A DNA stretch of 55,008 nt from Burkholderiales bacterium. Its GTDB lineage: Bacteria; Pseudomonadota; Gammaproteobacteria; Burkholderiales; JACQAP01. The notes beneath the pieces were generated by a model. It ran no database searches. It had not been told where the DNA came from and saw nothing but the letters and a program-made list of their open reading frames with translations. Every line of letters begins with the position of its first letter. The first letter of the stretch is position 1. The stretch is from assembly GCA_035644415.1 (NCBI GenBank), contig DASQOP010000280.1, positions 1 to 55,008 of the forward strand, in the 5' to 3' direction. The position numbers and the translations under genes are program-made. Shown here piece by piece: positions 2,593 through 53,599 of the stretch.

Positions 2593-2954
2593 TGGCGAAG
2601 CGGCCGTTCCGGCTGACCCCGCCGCCGATTTCCGAGGACGACATAGAGGCTGGGTGTAAGACTGTCCTGGCGCTGCACAGCTATTTAGTGATTCGCCTGC
2701 ATGCCGGGGTTTACAAGACGCTGGATGGGGCGCGGCATGTTCACGGTGTTCCGAAAGGCACGCCCGATTACGCCTGCCTGCATGAGTTCCACCGCAATTT
2801 TCTGTTGGAGGTCAAGCGTCCTGGCGGAAAGCTGAACCCCGACCAGGAGACCCAGATCGCGGCGATCCGGCAGCAATACCGACTGCCGGTGGTGGTTGCG
2901 GAGGGAGTGGAAGAGTTCTGCAATTGGCTGGCGAGGCACGAACACCCGCCCTAA
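2592..2954 (+). CDS. VRR-NUC domain nuclease
   Basis: ATG overlaps the upstream TGA; ..GVPKGTPDYACL..FLLEVKRPGGKLNPDQ.. matches the PD-(D/E)xK core of VRR-NUC proteins. Confidence 0.75.
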   Translation: MAKRPFRLTPPPISEDDIEAGCKTVLALHSYLVIRLHAGVYKTLDGARHVHGVPKGTPDYACLHEFHRNFLLEVKRPGGKLNPDQETQIAAIRQQYRLPVVVAEGVEEFCNWLARHEHPP

Positions 2955-3055
2955 AAAATAAAGGGGCACGTTATCCGCGTGCCCCCACTGCAATCACATT
3001 GGTCCCAGCTGGAGAAGGTCCCCGACATGGAACACGGTTCCAAGGAGCGAACTCG

Positions 3056-3571
3056 ATGGAACGTAACTCTTTTTTGATTGTAGCCAAAGCGGTCCTGGCG
3101 GACAAGAGAATTTCCGCTACAGCCAAGTTACTTCTGGCGGTCCTCGCGGATCACTGGAACAAAAACACGGGGCAGTGTAATCCCCATGAAGCGACTCTGG
3201 CGGAGGAAATCGGCGTTTGCCGCCGCACCGTAATTCGCGCCTTGGCGGAGTTAAAGACGGCTGGGCTGATCCAGGTGCAACGGACCCAGCGGGGCAATCG
3301 GTACGAGTTCCCGAAGTGCCAAAATGTCACTTCCCAAGTGACAAATAGTCACTCTGCAGAGTGCCAAAATGTCACTTCGGAACCTCCGTATCCTTTATAT
3401 GAACCTTACTTAGGTGAACCTAGCGGCTTACGCGCGCAAAAACGGCGCGCTCCCGCCGCGTCTCCTCCTAATCCAAAACCTCTCCACGCCCCGCTGCCGC
3501 GCCGTAAATCGGTGCAGAGCGCAACGCTGGAAGCGTTCTACCGCGAAGAGCGAAGAAAGGCAGGAAGGTGA
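3056..3571 (+). CDS. winged-helix DNA-binding protein, replication-initiator-like
   Basis: AAGGAG 8 nt upstream of ATG; ..ATLAEEIGVCRRTVIRALAELKTAGLIQVQR.. wHTH typical for phage/plasmid initiator-type proteins; gene contains iterons (3315-3378). Confidence 0.65.
   Translation: MERNSFLIVAKAVLADKRISATAKLLLAVLADHWNKNTGQCNPHEATLAEEIGVCRRTVIRALAELKTAGLIQVQRTQRGNRYEFPKCQNVTSQVTNSHSAECQNVTSEPPYPLYEPYLGEPSGLRAQKRRAPAASPPNPKPLHAPLPRRKSVQSATLEAFYREERRKAGR
3315..3378. repeat. iteron cluster inside the wHTH gene (candidate origin)
   Basis: 19-nt direct repeat AGTGCCAAAATGTCACTTC at 3315-3333 and 3360-3378 (45-nt period), flanking the palindrome AGTGAC-aaata-GTCACT (3337-3353). Confidence 0.5.
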
Positions 3572-4838: not shown

Positions 4839-5468
4839 GTGGAGCAACTTTGGCCAGCTGACAGCGTGGAGCGGTGGCCGCTGGCGCGGCTGATCCCCTA
4901 CGCGCGGAATGCGAGGACACATACTCCAGACCAGGTCAAGCAGATCGCGGCCTCGATGCGGGAATGGGGCTGGACGATTCCAGTGCTGGCCGACGAGGCC
5001 GGCGGAATTATTGCGGGCCACGCGCGTGTGATGGCGGCCGAGCTGAACCAGTATGCCGAAGCGCCGGTGATGATCGCGCGCGGCTGGTCGGACGCCAAGA
5101 AGCGGGCCTACGTGCTGGCCGATAACAAGCTGGCCATGAACGCGGGATGGAACGAGGAATTACTGGGAGTGGAGCTGCTCGAGTTGCGGGACGCGGGATT
5201 CGACATGCCGGTGATCGGCTTCGACGCCAGCGAATTGGACGGGCTGATGCGGGAGGTGGCCGAGGCCGGGTATCCAGTGCTGCCGGAAGGCGACCGGGCG
5301 CCCTACCAGCAGATCACCTTCCTGCTGCACGACGAGCAGGTGAAAATCGTGCAGGCCGCGGTGACCGCCGCCAAGCAGCGCGGGCCGTTCGTTGGCACTC
5401 ATAACGACAACGTAAACGGCAACGCCCTGGCGCGGATCTGCGCAGCGTACCTGGAGGAGGAGAACTAA
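4839..5468 (+). CDS. ParB-like nuclease domain protein
   Basis: ..LIPYARNARTHTPDQVKQIAASMREWGWTIPVL..IIAGHARVMAA.. is the ParB/Srx N-terminal domain signature. Confidence 0.8.
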   Translation: MEQLWPADSVERWPLARLIPYARNARTHTPDQVKQIAASMREWGWTIPVLADEAGGIIAGHARVMAAELNQYAEAPVMIARGWSDAKKRAYVLADNKLAMNAGWNEELLGVELLELRDAGFDMPVIGFDASELDGLMREVAEAGYPVLPEGDRAPYQQITFLLHDEQVKIVQAAVTAAKQRGPFVGTHNDNVNGNALARICAAYLEEEN

Positions 5469-6097: not shown

Positions 6098-6829
6098 ATG
6101 CAATCACAGAATGAGTACCCTGCGTCCGCCTCCCGGAGCTTTGCCACTGCGGCGATCGTTCAAGCATTCGCTAAGACCGCGCGGCCTTTCATGCGCCGGT
6201 TTATGAGTGCCAACTCGTGTATCGCGGCGGCGCGGACCACCATCGAGACCATGCGGCTCTACCGCCTGCGCGCGGTCGAGAAGCCGGTCTGTTACGTCTT
6301 TCAGGTGCCCGCGCGGAATTATGCGCGGCTGGCTGGATTCTCCGCAGAGGAGCGCGCGGAGATGAAAGCGAAAGCGGGAAATTGGGTAGATGCAACGCCG
6401 GACGGAGGCAGCTGGAACGGTCACCTGATCGTGGTGGTGGAGGACCGCTGGATTCTCGATCCATCAATCGATCAGGCCGACGCTCCCCAGTTCGGCGTCT
6501 CGGTTCCTGCGGAGGTGTTCGTCGCGGATACGCTTGGACAAACTTGGCATCCGAATATGAACTTCGAGATCGAACTCGGCTTGATCCTCGACAACGGCGA
6601 TGCGGCATCGCTGCTGTATCACAGCATCAGCGACCGCGGGTATCTCGAAACGGAAGCCTGGACCGATGAAGGGCTCCCGCTGCTGGCGCACGCCATCGCC
6701 AGCGAGATGAAAAACGCAGCGGCGGTGAGCATCGCCTGTCCCAAATGCGGCAGGGTCAGCCATAACGCGAACGACGTGCGCGAGCGCTACTGTGGCAACT
6801 GCCACTCCTTCCACGACGATGCGCGCTGA
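6098..6829 (+). CDS. hypothetical protein with C-terminal zinc ribbon
   Basis: 243-aa ORF; CPKCGRV..13 aa..CGNC at the C-terminus; starts with the shared ATGCAATCACA motif. Confidence 0.65.
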   Translation: MQSQNEYPASASRSFATAAIVQAFAKTARPFMRRFMSANSCIAAARTTIETMRLYRLRAVEKPVCYVFQVPARNYARLAGFSAEERAEMKAKAGNWVDATPDGGSWNGHLIVVVEDRWILDPSIDQADAPQFGVSVPAEVFVADTLGQTWHPNMNFEIELGLILDNGDAASLLYHSISDRGYLETEAWTDEGLPLLAHAIASEMKNAAAVSIACPKCGRVSHNANDVRERYCGNCHSFHDDAR

Positions 6830-7010
6830 AATTCTCGACAGAGCCGTGGCCTTTGAAGTCCAGCCGGAAGCTCGTCCGGACGGCAGCTGGGAGCCGCCGG
6901 CTGAAGTGACCCTGACGCTGCGGCCCTGCTGGCGAAAGCCGCCGGTTCGCTTGCGGGTAGCCTACCTGTACACCTACGAGCAAGTCGCTTATTACGCGGA
7001 GGAGCTATGA
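6819..7010 (+). CDS. hypothetical protein
   Basis: ATG overlapping the end of the upstream gene; in frame with track ORF 6792..7010. Confidence 0.5.
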   Translation: MRAEILDRAVAFEVQPEARPDGSWEPPAEVTLTLRPCWRKPPVRLRVAYLYTYEQVAYYAEEL

Positions 7011-7186
7011 TTCGCTGTGCCATTTGCCAAGACGATGGTTGGATCGCCTACCCGACGTTTGCCGATGCCGAAAAGCAAGTCATCCGCATTCGCAAAGTGG
7101 CCTGTCCGCGAGGATGCCCGCTGGCGAACCCGACCGAAGAGGGCGTGCTGGCTACGTTCCCGTCAGACCAGGAAGGCGAGGCATGA
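7007..7186 (+). CDS. small Cys-rich protein (59 aa, below the ORF-track cutoff)
   Basis: My translation: MIRCAICQDDGWIAYPTFADAEKQVIRIRKVACPRGCPLANPTEEGVLATFPSDQEGEA; ATGA overlaps at both ends (7007, 7183). Confidence 0.45.
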   Translation: MIRCAICQDDGWIAYPTFADAEKQVIRIRKVACPRGCPLANPTEEGVLATFPSDQEGEA

Positions 7187-7512
7187 GCACCAAAGAGTTT
7201 TGCAAACAATCCCGGCTGACCCCGCGCAAGGTGCAATGGTGGTGCGAGACGGGCGTCCTGCGATGCAGCCAGCGGGAGCGCGGTTTCCGCGACTTCGACG
7301 AGGCCGAGTTGCGGGTGGCGGCGCTGGTCGCGCAGCTGCGGCGCAAAGGGGTCGCGCTGACCAGGATCCGCCAGATGCGGATCCGAAACCCGCAGGGCGA
7401 TTTCCTGGTGGCGAACGGCGCGGCCTATTGGTGGTGCACGAGAGAGGAACTCCTGCCGGAACTCGCCAAAACCCGCGGGGCCTGTGTGGTGGTTTCCCTG
7501 AAAGGCCTATGA
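7183..7512 (+). CDS. MerR-type HTH DNA-binding protein
   Basis: MSTKEFCKQSRLTPRKVQWWCETGVL..RGFRDFDEAELRVAALVAQLRRKGVALTRI fits the MerR N-terminal HTH pattern. Confidence 0.65.
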   Translation: MSTKEFCKQSRLTPRKVQWWCETGVLRCSQRERGFRDFDEAELRVAALVAQLRRKGVALTRIRQMRIRNPQGDFLVANGAAYWWCTREELLPELAKTRGACVVVSLKGL

Positions 7513-7539
7513 ACGGTACGCTCAAGCAGAGGAGCTTCC

Positions 7540-7755
7540 ATGAGTCCCCGGCCTGCCGATCCTCCCCTCGACCGCGAATGGACGCAGGAAGAACTGCGGT
7601 CCTATCTCGAACCGCACGGCTTCACGTTCCGCGAGGGCGAGGTGATTCCACAGGGGTGCAAGTACATCTCGTTTCAGCCGGTGACTGAGAAGGAGATTCG
7701 GTGGGTTGAAGACCTTGCTCGGCGATTCGATTGGGCGAAGCGATTCGGTTGGTAG
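7540..7755 (+). CDS. hypothetical protein
   Basis: ATG with GGAG upstream; protein-like 71-aa ORF. Confidence 0.6.
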   Translation: MSPRPADPPLDREWTQEELRSYLEPHGFTFREGEVIPQGCKYISFQPVTEKEIRWVEDLARRFDWAKRFGW

Positions 7756-7868
7756 AGTAATAAGTGACCGACTAGGAAACGCCGGTGAAGCTCCGGCGGG
7801 TCCCTATAGGGGACTCTGGTGTAGAGAGGAACGGGATGCGCGCTAACCCCCGTGAACACACCTAGTGG

Positions 7869-7896
7869 CGCAACATGCGCGTTGCGTGCATTTTTT
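7869..7896 (+). terminator. hairpin plus T6: weak terminator/attenuator just upstream of the Mom-like gene
   Basis: CGCAAC-atgcgc-GTTGCG, then tgca, then TTTTTT. Confidence 0.4.
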
Positions 7897-7903
7897 CGGA
7901 GAA

Positions 7904-8695
7904 ATGATCCGGGAAATGACGACCGCCAAAGACATCCGCGTGGCCGCGATCAGCAGCCAGGCCGGCAACGCGCTGATCCGCAAACTGCACTACTCGCACA
8001 AGGTGGTGGTGAACTCCCAGCTGCACCTGGGCGTGTTCCTGGGCACGCGCCTGGAAGGGGCCATGCAGTTCGGCCCTTCGCTCGACCGGCGCAAATTGCT
8101 GGGGCTGGTGGAGGGCACCAGATGGAACGGCTTTCTGGAATTGAACCGGCTGGCCTTCAGCGAAAACCTGCCGCGCAATTCCGAGAGCCGCGCGCTGGGC
8201 GTGGCCATGCGGTTGATCCGCCGCCAGTATCCGTGGATCGAATGGATCGTCTCTTTCGCGGACGCCACGCAGTGCGGCGACGGCACCATCTACCGCGCGG
8301 CCGGCTTCGTGCTGACGCGCATCAAGCGCAACACGACGCTGTGGGCCGGGCCGGATGGAACGGTAATCAGTAACGTCGGGGAGCGGACCAGCATGAAGAA
8401 GATTCAGGCCACCGCGGCGCGCACCAGCTATCACGGTGGCGCCGACATGGACCATTACAAGGCGATGGGGTTCCAGCCGCTCGCCGGATACCAGTTGCGA
8501 TATATTTACTTCACGAATCGCGCGGCCCGTGCGCGGCTGACAGTTCCGATTCTCCCTTACACTGAAATTCACCGTGCGGGGGCCGCGATGGTTCGCGGCC
8601 AGCGCGTCGGTAGTATTCCGGCTGAAACAACGGTGTTCCACACCGAAGAGGGCGGTTCGACCCCGACCCCGACGCTCCAGCAACCCACCTCGTGA
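7904..8695 (+). CDS. Mom-like (GNAT-fold) DNA adenine modification enzyme with a C-terminal extension
   Basis: ..LIRKLHYSHK..HLGVF..LEGAMQFG..LELNRLAF..PRNSESRALG..WIVSFADATQCGDGTIYRAAGF.. follows the motif order I recall for Mom-family proteins; the start (7904 vs 7865/7916) is uncertain. Confidence 0.55.
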   Translation: MIREMTTAKDIRVAAISSQAGNALIRKLHYSHKVVVNSQLHLGVFLGTRLEGAMQFGPSLDRRKLLGLVEGTRWNGFLELNRLAFSENLPRNSESRALGVAMRLIRRQYPWIEWIVSFADATQCGDGTIYRAAGFVLTRIKRNTTLWAGPDGTVISNVGERTSMKKIQATAARTSYHGGADMDHYKAMGFQPLAGYQLRYIYFTNRAARARLTVPILPYTEIHRAGAAMVRGQRVGSIPAETTVFHTEEGGSTPTPTLQQPTS

Positions 8696-11007: not shown

Positions 11008-11063
11008 CGGGTCTGCACTGTAAGGTCCCTTCCCCTTTTCCCTCAACTACATGCCAAGTCCTG

Positions 11064-11092
11064 TTGACACAGCGCCAGCTATGCCGTAGTAT
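11064..11092 (+). promoter_or_regulatory. strong sigma70-type promoter, twin of 46991..47019
   Basis: TTGACA-17 nt-TAGTAT, then 6 nt, then ATG 11099. Confidence 0.6.
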
Positions 11093-11098
11093 GCGCCC

Positions 11099-11311
11099 AT
11101 GAAGCGCAAGAAAGCAGGGAAAGCGGGGACAGCCGCCGACCCTTTTGACAAGACCAAACGGGATGCGGCCGAGTTTCTCGGCGTGACAGTCTCGACCATC
11201 GACCGCTACGTGAGGAAGCGGAAAGTGCCACATATCAAACTGAACAACCATTTGGTGCGGTTCCGGATTTCCGACCTGGTCAAGTTCGCAGAAAAACAAA
11301 GGGTGGCTTAG
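11099..11311 (+). CDS. excisionase-family (HTH_17-type) DNA-binding protein
   Basis: ..AAEFLGVTVSTIDRYVRKRKVPHIKLNNHLVRFRISDLVKFAE.. is the classic Xis/MerR-like winged-helix pattern. Confidence 0.7.
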   Translation: MKRKKAGKAGTAADPFDKTKRDAAEFLGVTVSTIDRYVRKRKVPHIKLNNHLVRFRISDLVKFAEKQRVA

Positions 11312-16039: not shown

Positions 16040-16600
16040 ATGCAATCACAAAAGAAGCCCGCTAAGGGCAAAGCAGAGCACTACCAGATCGGCACAGTTA
16101 CCTGCGCTCCTCTTGAGCAGGATCTCGTTCGGGATTTCCTATTGGCGGCCGAGAAGTTGACAGCCGATGATCCCAGCCAAAGGGAAGAGGTCGAGGAAAT
16201 CAGGGCGCGGGCCTCCAAGCGCGGGAAGTCCGGCTATTACACTTCCAAGGGGAAAAAACAGAGGAAGGAAGATCGGAAGGCGTTGTGGCAGATTCTCTGG
16301 AATTGCAGCGGGCCGTACTGCACTTTCGATGAGCATCCCGATGATCCGGGGAATTGGGGGTTCTGGCTTATCTCCCATTGGCGCGAAGAGTTGCTTGAGG
16401 GGCATGGAATCATTGTTTACGAGGTGCGGCAGATACCGAAGAACTTCGAGGGCGATTTCTTGCTCGTGACGAAATCGGGCAACCTGATTCGGAAGGTGGC
16501 CATGTGCTATCGCGGCGCGGCTCCTGCCCATGAGATGCAGACTTTTTGGGAGATGGAGGGTTCGCTGATCCCGAGGTCGTATCTGCCCCAATTGCAGTAA
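16040..16600 (+). CDS. hypothetical protein
   Basis: 186-aa in-frame part of track ORF 15893..16600; starts ATGCAATCACAAAAG. Confidence 0.65.
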   Translation: MQSQKKPAKGKAEHYQIGTVTCAPLEQDLVRDFLLAAEKLTADDPSQREEVEEIRARASKRGKSGYYTSKGKKQRKEDRKALWQILWNCSGPYCTFDEHPDDPGNWGFWLISHWREELLEGHGIIVYEVRQIPKNFEGDFLLVTKSGNLIRKVAMCYRGAAPAHEMQTFWEMEGSLIPRSYLPQLQ

Positions 16601-16623: not shown

Positions 16624-16652
16624 AAAGCCGCCCGTTCGAAGGCGGCTTTTTG
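16624..16652 (+). terminator. rho-independent terminator
   Basis: AAAGCCGCC-cgttcgaa-GGCGGCTTT followed by TT. Confidence 0.7.
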
Positions 16653-16864
16653 GTCTGCGCCGTTCGCCGCTGAAGTGAGAAGTTCCTGCTGATAAGTCAC
16701 GTGGAATCACCAATTTGCAGAGTTACTAGCGCGACTGTGCGGGCGGCGAGCCCGCGGGCGGCCAGACGCGGCGGAGTACCTTTAACTCTATGATTCTAAA
16801 GGGTCTAGGCGATTCGCGCGCACGTAGCGTTGGCGTGTTGATAACAAAGGGGTTCGCTCTGTGG

Positions 16865-17114
16865 GGGCTATGGGCTATGGCCTATGGCCTATGGGTACGG
16901 GCGGCTGGGCGGCTGTGGGGCGGTACGGGCGGCTGGGCAGCCTTGGGAGCGGCTGGGCGGCTGAAATGGGGCGGCTGGGCGGCTGTAGGGGATACGAGGC
17001 GATTCTAGGGCAGCTAGCGGGCGGCTGTAGGGGATTGTACGGGGCGGTACGGGCGGCTGGGCGGCTGTAGAGCAAAAAAAAGCCGCCCCGTAGGGCGGCC
17101 CGGCTGGGCGGCTG
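16865..17114 (+). repeat. G-rich iteron field (7-nt phased GGSCTAT x4, then CGGCTGGGCGGCTG x5 plus degenerate copies)
   Basis: Perfect 14-mers at 16902, 16950, 16972, 17054 and 17101; GGTACGGGCGGCTGGGC three times; lies between convergent terminators. Confidence 0.8.
17074..17099 (-). terminator. rho-independent terminator of the - strand gene
   Basis: On the - strand: GCCGCCC-tacg-GGGCGGC followed by TTTTTTTT. Confidence 0.75.
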
Positions 17115-17116
17115 TT

Positions 17117-17638
17117 TTAGGCGAATTTGAATTCAAATCCCGCGCTACCGTAGGGCTTTGCTTCGATGTCATACGGCCTTGAGCCATCGAATCCCAATGT
17201 TTTGAATTGCTTGGTAGCGGAGATGTACGGCCTACCCGAAGCATCGCGCACATCCAGCGCGCCTTCTACCTCTTTCGCTTGAGGCACAATCCGTACCATT
17301 CGCCCTTCGATGGTAAGCGTAGCGAATTTGGGCTTTGGCGTACCTAGCCGCTCTGCTGCATCCTTCCCGAAGCATACGCGCCCTGTCTTGTTGAGATGAA
17401 TCGCAAATTCTGTAGGCTTGTCGGCCTTGGGAGCGGCGGGAGCGGCGGGAGCGGGCTTGGCAGCGGCAGCGGGCTTGACAGCAGCAGCGGGCTTGACAGC
17501 AGCAGCGGGCTTGGCAGCAGCAGCGGGCTTGACAGCAGCAGCGGGCTTGACAGCGGCAGCGGGCTTGGCAGCGCTTTTCAGGGCAGTAGCTAAGGCCTTG
17601 CCTACGGTAGCGGTAACATTCAAATTCTTTTTTGCCAT
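17117..17638 (-). CDS. DNA-binding protein: histone-H1/AlgP-like (KPAAAV)n repeat N-terminus plus AbrB/SpoVT-like C-terminal domain
   Basis: AAKPAAAVKPAAAVKPAAAAKPAAAV.. repeat; C-terminal ..TGRVCFGKDAAERLGTPKPKFATLTIEGRMVRIVP.. fits the swapped-hairpin AbrB pattern. Confidence 0.7.
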   Translation of the reverse strand: MAKKNLNVTATVGKALATALKSAAKPAAAVKPAAAVKPAAAAKPAAAVKPAAAVKPAAAAKPAPAAPAAPKADKPTEFAIHLNKTGRVCFGKDAAERLGTPKPKFATLTIEGRMVRIVPQAKEVEGALDVRDASGRPYISATKQFKTLGFDGSRPYDIEAKPYGSAGFEFKFA

Positions 17639-17766: not shown

Positions 17767-17850
17767 GATTTACATGGTTCGGATGGCAGAGCCAGAAAGC
17801 GCGGCAGGTATAGACATAGCCAACCCCACGCCATAGCCTAAGCCGTGGGC

Positions 17851-17895
17851 CAACGGTACGTGGTACAGGGGTACGTGGTACCCCCCAACGGTACC
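17851..17895. repeat. cluster of five GGTAC motifs
   Basis: CAACGGTAC GTGGTAC AGG GGTACGTGGTAC CCCC CAACGGTACC; GGTACGTGGTAC occurs twice (17855, 17870). Confidence 0.6.
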
Positions 17896-17950
17896 GCCAC
17901 GGGGGTTTCTATGCCAGAAGACGAAAACTCGATGCTGGGTCGAGTTGTTA

Positions 17951-17983
17951 CCGTCCACTTCACCGACTCGCCGTCCACTTCAC
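17951..17983. repeat. 13-nt direct repeat, 20-nt period
   Basis: CCGTCCACTTCAC at 17951-17963 and 17971-17983. Confidence 0.6.
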
Positions 17984-18919: not shown

Positions 18920-19426
18920 ATGCCCCTGGTCACCGAACTCGAGCTGGCGCGCCACCTTAAAAGAGACCGCAAAGCTGTGCGCCTGGCCGCGCAAAGCGGC
19001 CGGCTGACGACTCGAGCAGACGGTCTGTTCGATCTCGACGTAGCGGTCAGGGAATGGGCCGAGACCACTCACCACGAGAAGGGTCACAACAACCGCAGCC
19101 TCGCCGAGATTCCGTCGCCCGACATTCCACTGCGACCTGAAACCAAGAGCACCGACTATGCCAAGGCGCGGGCCGGGACGCAGATTTACGAAGCCCTGCT
19201 GAAGAAACTGCGTTACGAGGAGCGCGCCAAGAACCTGACTCCAACCGCGGATGTAGAAACCGCGCGTTTCACCGAGTTCCGCATCCTGCGTGAGGCTTGC
19301 TTCAACATTCCGGCGCGGATCGCGGCGCTGATCGCCGGGGAGACGCAAGTGGAGCGGTGCCAGCAGCTGCTCGAAAGCGAACTGAACAGCGTGTTCAACG
19401 CCTTCGCCGACGGCAGGCTCTCATGA
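18920..19426 (+). CDS. terS: terminase small subunit (Nu1-like)
   Basis: Directly upstream of and ATGA-coupled to the GpA-type large terminase; N-terminal HTH-like LELARHLKRDRKAVRLAAQSG; C-terminal pattern typical of small terminases. Confidence 0.7.
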   Translation: MPLVTELELARHLKRDRKAVRLAAQSGRLTTRADGLFDLDVAVREWAETTHHEKGHNNRSLAEIPSPDIPLRPETKSTDYAKARAGTQIYEALLKKLRYEERAKNLTPTADVETARFTEFRILREACFNIPARIAALIAGETQVERCQQLLESELNSVFNAFADGRLS

Positions 19427-21357
19427 CGCCCGCACTGACGCTGCACGCTTCGCTGCCCGGTCTGGCCGACGCCTACGAAGTCAGCCGGCAGGCCTGCCGT
19501 GCCGGGGCGCGGCCGGACCCCAAGCTGCGCATCTCGGAGTGGGCAGACCAATACCGGGTTCTCACGACACGCTCGTCGCCGGAGCCCGGGATGTGGCGCA
19601 CTGAGCGCACTCCATTTCTGCGCGACATCATGGACTCCTTGATGCCCGAGGCTCCGTGGGAGCGGGTGGTGTTCATGAAGGGGTCGCAGGTCGGCGCAAC
19701 GGAATCGGGCAACAACTGGATCGGGTACGTGATCCATCTCGCGCCAGGCCCGATGCTGGTGGTGCAGCCGACCGAGATGATGGCCAAGCGCAACTCGAAA
19801 CAGCGCATTGGTCCGCTGATCGAGGACTCGCCGGTCCTGCGCACCCTGGTACGGACGGCGCGGTCGCGCGACTCGGGCAACACGATTCTGGCCAAAGAGT
19901 TTCTGGGCGGCATCCTGGTGCTGGCCGGCGCGAACAGTGCCAAGCAGCTGCGTTCGATGGCCGCGCGCTATCTGTTCCTGGACGAGGTGGACGCCTATCC
20001 GCCCAACGTGGACCGCGAGGGCGAGCCCTGCGATCTGGCGATTGCGCGCACCAGCAACTTCCGGCGCAAGAAGATTTTCATCACCTCGACGCCCACGATT
20101 GCGGGCCGCAGCCGCATCTGCACCTTCTTCGAGCAGAGCGACCAGAATTTCTATTTCGTGCCCTGCCCGCGCTGCGGCGTTTTGATCACCTTACTGCCCG
20201 AGCAGCTGGGCTGGTCGCCCACCCTGAAGCATCAGGCCAGCTACCGGTGTCAGGAGTGCGAGGGCGAGATCTTCGATCACGAGAAAACGGGGATGCTGGA
20301 GTTGGGCGAATGGCGCGCGACCGCCGCGGGCGACGGCGTGACGCGCGGCTACCACTTGTCCAGCTATTACTCGCCGGTGGGCTGGCTGTCCTGGACGCAG
20401 ATCATGCGCAACCACGACAAGAGCACGGCGTCTCCCGAGAAGTTGCAGGCGTTCTACAACACCGTGCTCGGCCTGCCGTGGGCGGACCAGGGCGAAGTGC
20501 CGGACGTGGACCGGCTCTACGAGCGCAGGGAATCCTACGTGATCGGCGAAGTGCCCGAGGGCGGGCTGGTGCTGACCGCAGGCGCCGACGTGCAGCTCAA
20601 CCGCATCGAGGTCGAGATCGTGGCCTGGGGCCGCGACCGCATTTCCTGGAGTGTCGACTATCGCGTGCTCGAAGGCAACAGCAACCAGCCCCAGGTGTGG
20701 GAGCAGCTGGCCCGGCTGATGGACGAAGAGTTCCCCACCTTCTACGGCGGCGCGCTGCGAATTCAGAAACTAGCCGTCGATTCCGGTTTCAACACCATGC
20801 GGGTGTATGAGTGGGTGCGCACGATGCTCGCGCAGCGCGTGATGGCGGTCAAAGGCGAGAGCCACGTGCCCGCATTGGTCGGCTCTCCGAACCTGATCGA
20901 ACGCGGCCCGGCCGGACGCCTGATTCGAGGCGGCGTGCGCCTGTGGCCGGTCAATTCCTCTATCGGCAAGGAAGAACTGTACCGCTGCCTGAAACTGTCG
21001 GCCCCAGACCTCGCGGCCGGCGAAGAGTGGCCAGCGGGCTATTGCCACTTCCCGTCCTACTCTAAGGAGTTTTTCGAGCAGCTGTGCGGCGAGCAGCTGA
21101 TTACGCGCACGCTGGCGGGCCGCACCACCAGCCGTTGGGAAAAGCGGCGCGACCGCAACGAAGCGCTGGACGTCAGGATCTATGCGCGAGCCGCAGCCGC
21201 CACTCTGCGCATGGAGACGTGGCAGCCGAAGCGGTGGAACGACATCGAGACCGCGCTGCGCGGCGGCAGGGCCATCGGCGGCAGCGTCGCCAAAGGCGTG
21301 CAGTCCCCGATTCCGCAGTTTCGCCCGCTCAGAGCCAACGAAGGATTTCTGGAATGA
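19423..21357 (+). CDS. terL: terminase large subunit, lambda GpA family
   Basis: ..ISEWADQYRVL....PG.W...RTPFLRDIMD..S......VVFMKGSQVGATE..NW.GY.I...PGPMLVVQPT.. is the GpA N-terminal signature; 644 aa. Confidence 0.95.
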   Translation: MTPALTLHASLPGLADAYEVSRQACRAGARPDPKLRISEWADQYRVLTTRSSPEPGMWRTERTPFLRDIMDSLMPEAPWERVVFMKGSQVGATESGNNWIGYVIHLAPGPMLVVQPTEMMAKRNSKQRIGPLIEDSPVLRTLVRTARSRDSGNTILAKEFLGGILVLAGANSAKQLRSMAARYLFLDEVDAYPPNVDREGEPCDLAIARTSNFRRKKIFITSTPTIAGRSRICTFFEQSDQNFYFVPCPRCGVLITLLPEQLGWSPTLKHQASYRCQECEGEIFDHEKTGMLELGEWRATAAGDGVTRGYHLSSYYSPVGWLSWTQIMRNHDKSTASPEKLQAFYNTVLGLPWADQGEVPDVDRLYERRESYVIGEVPEGGLVLTAGADVQLNRIEVEIVAWGRDRISWSVDYRVLEGNSNQPQVWEQLARLMDEEFPTFYGGALRIQKLAVDSGFNTMRVYEWVRTMLAQRVMAVKGESHVPALVGSPNLIERGPAGRLIRGGVRLWPVNSSIGKEELYRCLKLSAPDLAAGEEWPAGYCHFPSYSKEFFEQLCGEQLITRTLAGRTTSRWEKRRDRNEALDVRIYARAAAATLRMETWQPKRWNDIETALRGGRAIGGSVAKGVQSPIPQFRPLRANEGFLE

Positions 21358-29911: not shown

Positions 29912-30013
29912 GTGCCATTGGCACCCTCGCCTTGCCGCACCGCGCCAAACCCAGCCATGGCTAGCCATGCCCAGCCGTGCCGAGCCTTGCCACGCCAGGC
30001 CCAGCCAAGCCCT
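29912..30013 (-). repeat. pentamer-phased G-rich array plus GTGCCAATGGCAC cap (copy A, inverted)
   Basis: On the - strand, 20 in-phase pentamers GGCTT GGCTG GGCCT GGCGT GGCAA ... GGCGA GGGTG CCAAT GGCAC. Confidence 0.85.
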
Positions 30014-52003: not shown

Positions 52004-52093
52004 AACCGCGATGGCGATGACACCAGCGCGGCGAGGTCAGGCGGAGGCAGGGCTCGGCAGGGTTTTTTGAAAAGAAGGTTTTTAATTTGCCGG

Positions 52094-52183
52094 GGCAGGG
52101 TGTGGCACGGCTGGGCACGGCACGGCCGGGCAGGGCAGGGCAGGGCAGGGCAGGGTACGGCGAGGCGAGGGTGCCAATGGCAC
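52094..52183 (+). repeat. pentamer-phased G-rich array plus GTGCCAATGGCAC cap (copy B)
   Basis: 18 in-phase pentamers including (GGCAG)x5; palindrome at 52171-52183; a shorter array remnant lies at 52030-52063. Confidence 0.9.
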
Positions 52184-53498: not shown

Positions 53499-53599
53499 TG
53501 GTCCGGTCGGGCTCGGCAAGGCCCGGTGGGGCTAGGCGTGGCGGGGTGCGGCTAGGCAAGGTTGGGTATGGTACGGCGAGGCAAGGGTGCCAATGGCAC
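53499..53599 (+). repeat. pentamer-phased G-rich array plus cap (copy D)
   Basis: 20 in-phase pentamers; palindrome at 53587-53599. Confidence 0.9.

Follow-up and report, generated by a model that had tools for sequence, protein, structure and literature searches.

A lineage-variable G-rich repeat field beside a putative lambda-type cos core in phages of Bryobacterales

The 55,008-nt stretch analysed here, hereafter the window, is phage DNA. The upstream gene on the + strand stops at 16600, and its operon is closed by an intrinsic terminator (16624..16652, +; stem 16632-16645 plus T-run) whose stem sits within AAAGCCGCCCGTTCGAAGGCGGCTTTTT. Along the + strand there follow a ~95-nt unique non-coding core (16692-16786), a CCTTTGTT-type element, short GGSCTAT repeats and a G-rich array, and beyond the array an H1-like gene on the opposite strand, two copies of CGTCCACTTCAC, small genes, terS and terL. 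The terminase small subunit, TerS (18920..19426, +; PHROG 57, E = 5e-24), is the presumed reader of the repeats; its N-terminal ~45 aa are its most variable part and may be read as a helix-turn-helix (HTH) by analogy with lambda Nu1. The large subunit, TerL, is of the lambda gpA type (ORF listed at 19297..21357, +; Pfam GpA_ATPase 2e-86, GpA_nuclease 2e-83; PHROG 15), with a true start probably near 19423, and portal and head genes lie downstream of it. The two CGTCCACTTCAC copies form a direct repeat, 20 nt apart, at 17952-17983, just ahead of the small genes that precede terS; CCACTTCA repeats occupy the equivalent place in L036, L038, L129, L131, L132 and L137, and the 17952-17983 repeat may be a late promoter or activator site. 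Relatives' loci (L-numbers) were retrieved via the 173-aa product of the H1-like gene and via TerS. Homologues of the 173-aa protein were found in Solibacter/Bryobacterales (Acidobacteriota) prophages and in soil metagenomes, and to judge from sequence the phage group is acidobacterial, with Bryobacterales/Solibacter as host.

The original prediction had described a G-rich iteron field at 16865-17114, lying between two convergent terminators. Both terminators were found again (+ at 16624-16652, − at 17101..17080), and every claim about the sequence of the field matched on recount. Positions 16865-16892 read GGGCTAT GGGCTAT GGCCTAT GGCCTAT, within a tract of GGSCTAT repeats (16865..16895, +) to which TRF assigned a period of 7 and 4.4 copies. 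The 14-mer CGGCTGGGCGGCTG occurs five times without mismatch (16902, 16950, 16972, 17054 and 17101), on the + strand every time, and nowhere else in the 55-kb window even with up to one mismatch tolerated; 0.09 copies were expected by chance, and five were reached in none of 100 shuffles. The 9-mer GGGCGGCTG has 12 copies in the window, where 1.8 were expected, and 10 of the 12 lie inside the field; GGTACGGGCGGCTGGGC is present at 16894, 16922 and 17046. Nine GGGCGGCTG units, mainly arranged as GGGCGGCTGGGCGGCTG doublets and all in one orientation, make up the G-rich array (16894..17073, +), and the iteron spacing is irregular (8, 20, 28, 14, 42, 32 and 47 nt). The repeats of the field lie on a single strand only, with a terminator on each flank. 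On the right this is the intrinsic terminator of the H1-like gene cassette (17080..17101, −), with a 9-bp stem in which 7 of 9 pairs are G-C, followed by T8. A final iteron copy (17101..17114, +) is located between that terminator and the stop codon of the H1-like gene, likewise in L123.

Related elements lie on both sides of the field. To its left, the AACCCCTTTGTTATCAAC element (16838..16858, −) is a candidate site for an architectural or bending protein; CCTTTGTT is kept near the core, in variable orientation, in L036, L040, L042, L125, L129, L130 (three copies) and L133 (a palindromic pair). To its right, beyond the H1-like gene, a second repeat cluster (17810..17900) consists of ATAGACATAGCC..CCATAGCC, which is the inverse of GGCTATG, and of five GGTAC units. 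This cluster is homologous to the GGCATAGG run that directly adjoins the G-rich array in L129 and, as far as sequence can tell, is what remains of the repeat field to the right of the H1-like cassette.

The core just left of the field, overlooked in the original prediction together with its lambda-like cosN, is kept in relatives while the repeats change. Searches with the core using nhmmer gave E = 1.6e-25 for the window, 3e-26 for L042, 2e-25 for L036, 5e-17 for L040, 4e-17 for L059 and 1e-16 for L133, with weaker matches in L038, L124 and L125; the core is present in at least eight distinct relatives. In L059 and L036 a terminator equivalent to that at 16624..16652 stands ahead of it. According to alignments and nhmmer, the candidate cos core comprises cosN and its flanks up to GGAGTACCTTT (16692..16786, +). 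Its centre reads TGTGC GGGCGGCGAGCC CGCGGG, and the left end of lambda is GGGCGGCGACCT CGCGGG. The core segment GGGCGGCGAGCCCGCGGG is identical to the lambda cohesive end plus flank at 16 of 18 positions, and the 12-nt cohesive end alone at 10 of 12: the mismatches fall at bp 10 and 12, and the CGCGGG flank is identical. The cohesive end's right half (bp 7-12) is the variable part among lambda-like phages (Feiss et al., PMC4669245). The putative cohesive end GGGCGGCGAGCC, that is, the cosN nick region, would lie at 16741..16752 (+), with nick positions uncertain by ~1 nt.

By itself the match to lambda is statistically weak, with 0.42 hits of up to three mismatches expected per window. When the lambda cos junction was aligned locally with the whole window, another segment scored equally high (27 versus 26), and the similarity was therefore a lead alone until it was joined with the conservation of the core and with contig ends. 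Scanning IMG/VR for GGGCGGCGN{1,2}GCCCGCGGG was uninformative, because the 64 hits were mostly chance matches in GC-rich DNA and none of them started a contig. The lambda cosQ (GGGTCCT), expected ~30 bp upstream of cosN, was not found in 16650-16740; an upstream GTGGAATCAC..TTACTAGCG segment is conserved among the acidobacterial relatives and could stand in for it. With blastn, the region had no match among 50,697 GenBank phages.

Contig ends, which bear on virion ends indirectly, supplied the independent mark of position. The IMG/VR contig L059 (sample 3300036846) ends ...TGTGCGGGCGGCGAAGCC / ...TTACTAGCGATATTGTGCGGGCGGCGAAGCC, right before the expected CGCGGG; its terminus is the right end, overhang included. 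The JGI contig L123 (sample 3300086452), the closest relative and identical to the window in synteny, begins in window orientation with GGCGGCGAGCCCGCGG...GGAGTACCTTT, and the IMG/VR contig L041 (sample 3300036832) begins with GGCGGCCTGCCCGCCGG...GTAGTACCTTT; both termini are left ends. These three contigs, from three metagenome samples, terminate within ~1 nt of the predicted nicks, and a fourth, the ENA contig L128, starts 35 nt inside the predicted site. All four break points are outside repeats; in the same group, L043, L044 and L129-L132 do break inside the arrays. Three contigs ending within ~1 nt of one aligned position would be very unlikely unless a physical DNA end lies there, and since shared termini of this kind are so improbable by chance, we place cosN at about 16741-16752. 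That the core is a cos site with cosN at this position thus appears highly probable.

Given a lambda-like cosN, a gpA-type TerL and the order and polarity of the elements, the repeat field falls in the position of cosB, between cosN and terS/terL. It occupies 124-373 bp to the right of the putative cosN, on the terS/terL side and ~1.8 kb from terS. The same order and polarity (core, array, terS, terL) were found in the window, L036, L042, L123 and L128. Of the four roles that the original prediction had offered, namely replication origin, partition site, packaging recognition site and nucleoprotein nucleation site, the last two are the ones backed by the evidence, because of this placement beside a lambda-like cosN.

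The prediction had also proposed looking for the field in relatives, and results showed that its position is conserved while unit sequence and copy number differ, the array being sometimes absent. Arrays stand at the position of the window's in L036, L041, L042, L044, L123 and L128, and across the relatives the units range from 14 to 30 nt in 3-25 copies. L042 combines CGCATCC-type 7-mers with 13.9 copies of a 20-mer, L041 has 8.4 copies of a 20-mer, L044 at least 6 copies of an 18-mer, and L123 has about nine GGGCGGC(GGC)AGGCAGGGCCGGGA units (~24-mer) after about nine CACTnnCACACC units. Copies of GGCGGCTG, the iteron family of the window, number 11-19 across L036 and L128, and 15-19 in L128 alone. 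Further variants occur in L129-L132, 0.7-1 kb upstream of terS, and runs of GGCCTAT, GGCATAGG or AGGCAT, related to GGSCTAT, occur in L036, L040, L041, L128, L129 and L132. What the arrays share is a single orientation, a positive G-C skew and, mostly, a GGCGGC core, which is strongly biased to one strand (11:1, 20:2, 19:1, 12:1 and 13:0 in the fields) and which also forms the first bases of the cohesive end. Taken across the group, a field has 10-25 sites spread over 250-800 bp and begins more than 100 bp away from cosN. Large arrays are not indispensable, because L133, L038/L124 and L125 keep the cos core with a minimal array or none.

Several other arrangements were noted in passing. In L038, a Bryobacterales chromosomal prophage, a TIR-domain gene (6727-7608; also in L039) separates the cos-like core from the terminase genes; the H1-like gene there runs in the same direction as TerL, and the repeat field measures only ~90 nt. 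The unrelated phage L027 has at least four copies of a 40-nt unit containing GGGCGGCTGGGCGGCTGGGCGGCT at 7590-7752, preceded by GGGCCTATGG motifs; this GGGCGGCT array, in which the contig ends, is situated 325 nt upstream of a gene for a Terminase_2 TerS. L011, an IMG/VR contig of 55,555 nt, begins with (GGGCGGCT)x4 at 1-32, followed by ~700 nt of non-coding DNA rich in CACAACC and ACTACAACC; a cos core of the present type was not detected in L011.

The reading that we favour, at a probability of roughly 50%, is that the field is an expanded cosB-like site for terminase assembly, and the lineage-variable part of the cos packaging region. cosB consists of TerS binding sites that differ in complexity and specificity among lambda-like phages (PMC4669245), and we infer that the protein sitting on the repeats is TerS, or terminase. 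The unidirectional GGGCGGCTG sites, with their GGCGGC core, would recruit the N-terminal DNA-binding domains of an oligomeric TerS, possibly joined by an architectural protein at the CCTTTGTT or GGSCTAT elements; TerS on the array would then position the gpA-type TerL to nick cosN; and the array would keep terminase anchored on the left chromosome end, which would be packaged first. In lambda, terminase stays bound to the chromosome end carrying cosB, and this end is the first to enter the capsid (PMC4669245). In phages that have it, the H1-tailed protein may serve as an accessory architectural factor. The reading is also favoured by L129-L132, where arrays accompany cos and terS with no H1-like gene between them, and by the GGGCGGCT array upstream of the TerS gene in the unrelated phage L027. 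Several observations count against an expanded cosB. Some relatives do without arrays, the size and copy number of the arrays go far beyond those of the lambda R sites, iteron spacing in the window is irregular, and the cosQ of lambda is missing upstream. Nor is there clean covariation of the repeat unit with the recognition helix of TerS: the window and L123 share the helix RDRKAVRLAAQSGRL while their arrays have GGGCGGC alone in common, and GGCGGCTG iterons are common to the window, L036 and L128, which have three different helices. TerS of L123 is 88% identical to that of the window, with a different array, and TerS of L129 is 83% identical.

A bolder version of the cosB-like reading takes the long, fast-evolving, unidirectional GGCGGC array as a multivalent landing pad for terminase and the phage-encoded H1-tailed protein, whose gene is inserted in the array in some lineages, as a dedicated architectural or protective factor of the cos end that substitutes for IHF. 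We hold this version to be doubtful; if true, it would amount to a packaging accessory protein of a new class and to a new construction of cosB. The GGCGGC-core repeats resemble the first 7 nt of the cohesive end.

The product of the H1-like gene itself (17117..17638, −), 173 aa long, has an N-terminus of AAVKPA repeats and a conserved C-terminal domain of 95 aa; the gene is an optional cassette. The C-domain is modelled as two beta-beta-alpha-beta-beta repeats (pLDDT 95) and the AAVKPA tail as disordered. Within the coding sequence, a tandem repeat at 17450-17573 (18-nt unit, 6.8 copies, or 54-nt unit, 2.3 copies) encodes the AAVKPA units, and among homologues the N-terminal tails are highly variable in both length and sequence. 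The neighbour had been called H1-like or AbrB-like. The first label holds for composition, because the N-terminus is built of AAVKPA repeats; the second was not confirmed, hhalign against AbrB giving a non-significant E of 0.22, in the expected register, with TGRVCFGKDAAERLG over AbrB LGRVVIPIELRRTLG. The protein had no match in Pfam or among the PHROGs, and neither Foldseek against the PDB, with the full-length protein and with the C-domain, nor a profile search of PDB sequences returned anything significant; the best PDB folds were B3 DNA-binding pseudobarrels, in B3-DNA complexes (TM 0.43, E = 0.3). The only significant structural matches were uncharacterised phage proteins, such as Gp105 of Lactococcus phage KSY1 (TM 0.78, E = 5e-6). 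The model of the C-domain (17120-17413, −) also matches models predicted for uncharacterised proteins of Bacillus Mgbh1, Erwinia phiEa2809 and Klebsiella FBKp24, and the models indicate that the domain, and with it the H1-tailed neighbour, appears to belong to a widespread fold family found in many unrelated phages.

How this gene came to lie next to the repeats can be read from its surroundings. In L129 the G-rich array is followed by GGCATAGG repeats and directly by the late-gene leader, with no H1-like gene, and L129-L132 as a group keep arrays without it; in the window repeats are also found beyond the gene, and in L036 iterons lie on both of its flanks. Because of these three observations, the simplest reading of the sequences is that the H1-like gene forms a self-contained cassette, equipped with a promoter and a terminator of its own, which would have been inserted into a pre-existing repeat field. 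Such an insertion would explain the convergent terminators: the supposed insulation of the field, for which the terminators themselves are real, has a simpler cause in the end of the right-arm operon before cos and in the inserted cassette's own terminator.

An alternative to the cosB-like reading is that the repeats are a binding array for this adjacent H1-like, duplicated-hairpin protein, which would coat or condense the chromosome end independently of terminase, in order to protect that end, in silencing or in autoregulation. Gene and field are immediate neighbours, the gene has iterons or related repeats to its left and right in the window and L036, one iteron stands between its stop codon and its terminator in the window and L123, and the gene is linked to cos in ~10 loci of two clades. 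A gene for an unrelated AKP-rich protein lies beside a GGGCGGCTGG array in L030 and L034, and the best PDB folds of the C-domain, at a non-significant level, are the DNA-binding B3 pseudobarrels. The original prediction had named the H1-like protein as an obvious candidate partner. It is, however, not an obligate one, because the arrays of L129-L132 lie upstream of terS without that gene in between, and the same loci indicate that arrays travel with cos and terS. Moreover, identity of the C-domain stays at 60-80% between phages with arrays of unrelated sequence, and, as given above, neither the Pfam and PHROG searches nor the comparisons with the PDB and AbrB were significant. We therefore regard a terminase-independent coat of H1-like protein as unlikely. 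The lineage of L030, L034 and L020, which is unrelated and of higher GC content, has 88-nt-period arrays that contain GGGCGGCTGGGCGGCTG (L030, 3140-3450; L034, 4860-5090; L020, ~11060-11260); here too a gene just upstream of the array encodes an AKP-rich (H1-like) protein, of 142 aa and without the conserved C-domain.

The arrays could also be largely neutral, a slippage-prone filler in an untranscribed non-coding gap next to cos that adjusts the cos-to-cos length and has no sequence-specific partner. Unit and copy number do differ between relatives as close as the window and L123, arrays are missing in some relatives, and they break assemblies (L043, L044, L027 and L129-L132), as is typical of hypervariable tandem repeats. 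Against this, arrays recur at one location in many lineages, with constant orientation and a strand-biased GGCGGC core. In addition, the copies in the window are dispersed rather than purely tandem and yet five of them are perfectly conserved, which suggests selection on the unit. We consider a neutral filler to be quite improbable.

A role at the level of DNA, which had been predicted, was supported by the lack of an Rfam family in the field region (at E ≤ 1 noise alone was returned), by the position between terminators and by the constant place of the repeats despite their changing sequence. Two such roles fare poorly. Direct repeats in a non-coding region would suit an iteron-type replication origin or a plasmid-style partition centromere, but better-phased iterons exist 13 kb away: three partly palindromic 19-nt iterons (AGTGCCAAAATGTCACTTC), spaced by 22-23 nt, lie at 3308-3378 inside an HTH_36/RP-C-like (RepC-like) ORF (2924-3571), and this set is the likely replication origin on sequence grounds, arranged like the lambda ori in gene O. 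With phased iterons in an initiator-like gene, no par genes nearby and relatives integrated in a Bryobacterales chromosome, an origin or centromere at the field is disfavoured to the point of being very improbable. For an origin, the irregular spacing, the lack of a marked AT-rich unwinding element and of an adjoining initiator gene led us to reject the field; for a parS/parC centromere, no parA/parB or parM/parR was found nearby, and the ORF at 4839-5468, earlier called ParB-like, had no match in a Pfam search. A circular genome with the window's ends joined in a serine-recombinase gene was dropped as well, ORF 1-1047 having no Pfam hit and the ends no terminal overlap.

The G-rich strand might instead fold into G-quadruplexes (G4) acting structurally, for example in replication or transcription pausing or in end marking. 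Three of the six G4 motifs of the window are in the field, as is its top G4Hunter score (1.35 per 100 nt), so that the predicted fit to the motif is real in this phage; but the motif (G3+N1-7 x 4) is missing from five of seven homologous fields (L036, L128, L041, L042 and L125), the region is duplex DNA between terminators, and, with G4 motifs confined to few members, a conserved G4 function was rejected and this explanation is hardly credible. Chi-like or telomere-like end protection seems unlikely, because the repeats vary among phages whose hosts are apparently alike and because the polarity of the G-rich strand is the reverse of a telomere's.

Other features of the window were recorded beside this locus. 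The ORF at 7865-8695 strongly matches the Mom protein family (Pfam PF25680, E = 1e-49), pointing to a DNA base modification encoded by the phage. Further tandem repeats are found at 29950-30012 (CCCAGCCATG, 6.3 copies), at 52093-52161 (GGGCA, 12.6 copies, or GGCACGGCAG, 5.8 copies) and at 53503-53596 (a 20-mer in three copies plus a 25-mer in two), and the 52-54 kb region has the strongest GC skew of the window.

Taken together, these results locate predicted genome ends and a packaging signal for a group of uncultured Bryobacterales/Solibacter phages, for which, to our knowledge, no experimental system exists. The lambda cosN sequence would then be recognisably conserved far outside enterobacteria. 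The position of cos helps to orient and complete metagenomic phage genomes, in which the arrays repeatedly break assemblies. If the arrays are landing pads, they would provide a natural series in which site number, from 0 to ~25, and sequence vary while TerS changes little; such a series would lend itself to studies of how DNA is read by TerS oligomers.

Among known systems, the AbrB/SpoVT/MraZ swapped-hairpin proteins and the plant B3 domains share with the neighbour protein a duplicated beta-beta-alpha-beta-beta unit and GR(V/P) loop motifs, whereas its matches to them are non-significant (E 0.2-0.3, TM 0.43). The lambda ori in gene O resembles the field in having direct repeats of 14-20 nt; unlike that origin, the field lies neither in nor beside an initiator gene, its spacing is irregular, and a separate, typical iteron set exists elsewhere. 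In phage SPP1, pacL and pacR form a multi-site TerS recognition region, in which the DNA has been proposed to wrap around the TerS oligomer. The present field would be similar in offering many repeated sites for an oligomeric TerS, and the units of L041, L042 and L044 recur every 18-20 nt, about two helical turns; however, the present phage apparently packages by cos, with defined ends, and homology to SPP1 G1P is lacking at both the sequence and the protein level. The closest parallel is the cos region of lambda and lambda-like phages (cosQ-cosN-cosB; Nu1/gpA), and the sequences plausibly describe a cos region of lambda type whose repeat field is unusually large and evolves fast, in phages of a phylum that has been little studied. 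In its 120 bp, lambda cosB has three R sites and a single IHF site, whereas here at least 10 unidirectional G-rich sites extend over 250 bp, and up to ~25 sites over 450-800 bp in relatives. In contrast to lambda, 124 bp lie between cosN and the start of the field, terS is ~1.8 kb away from the field, an inserted opposite-strand gene included, no GGGTCCT cosQ is present, no site with the IHF consensus stood out, and the host is an acidobacterium (Bryobacterales/Solibacter). As in lambda, TerL is of the gpA family, and repeats lie between cosN and terS with the same polarity (cosN-cosB-Nu1-A in lambda). The cohesive end differs in its right half, as in N15 and gifsy-1, and the repeat region varies between relatives as cosB does among lambda, 21 and N15 (PMC4669245).
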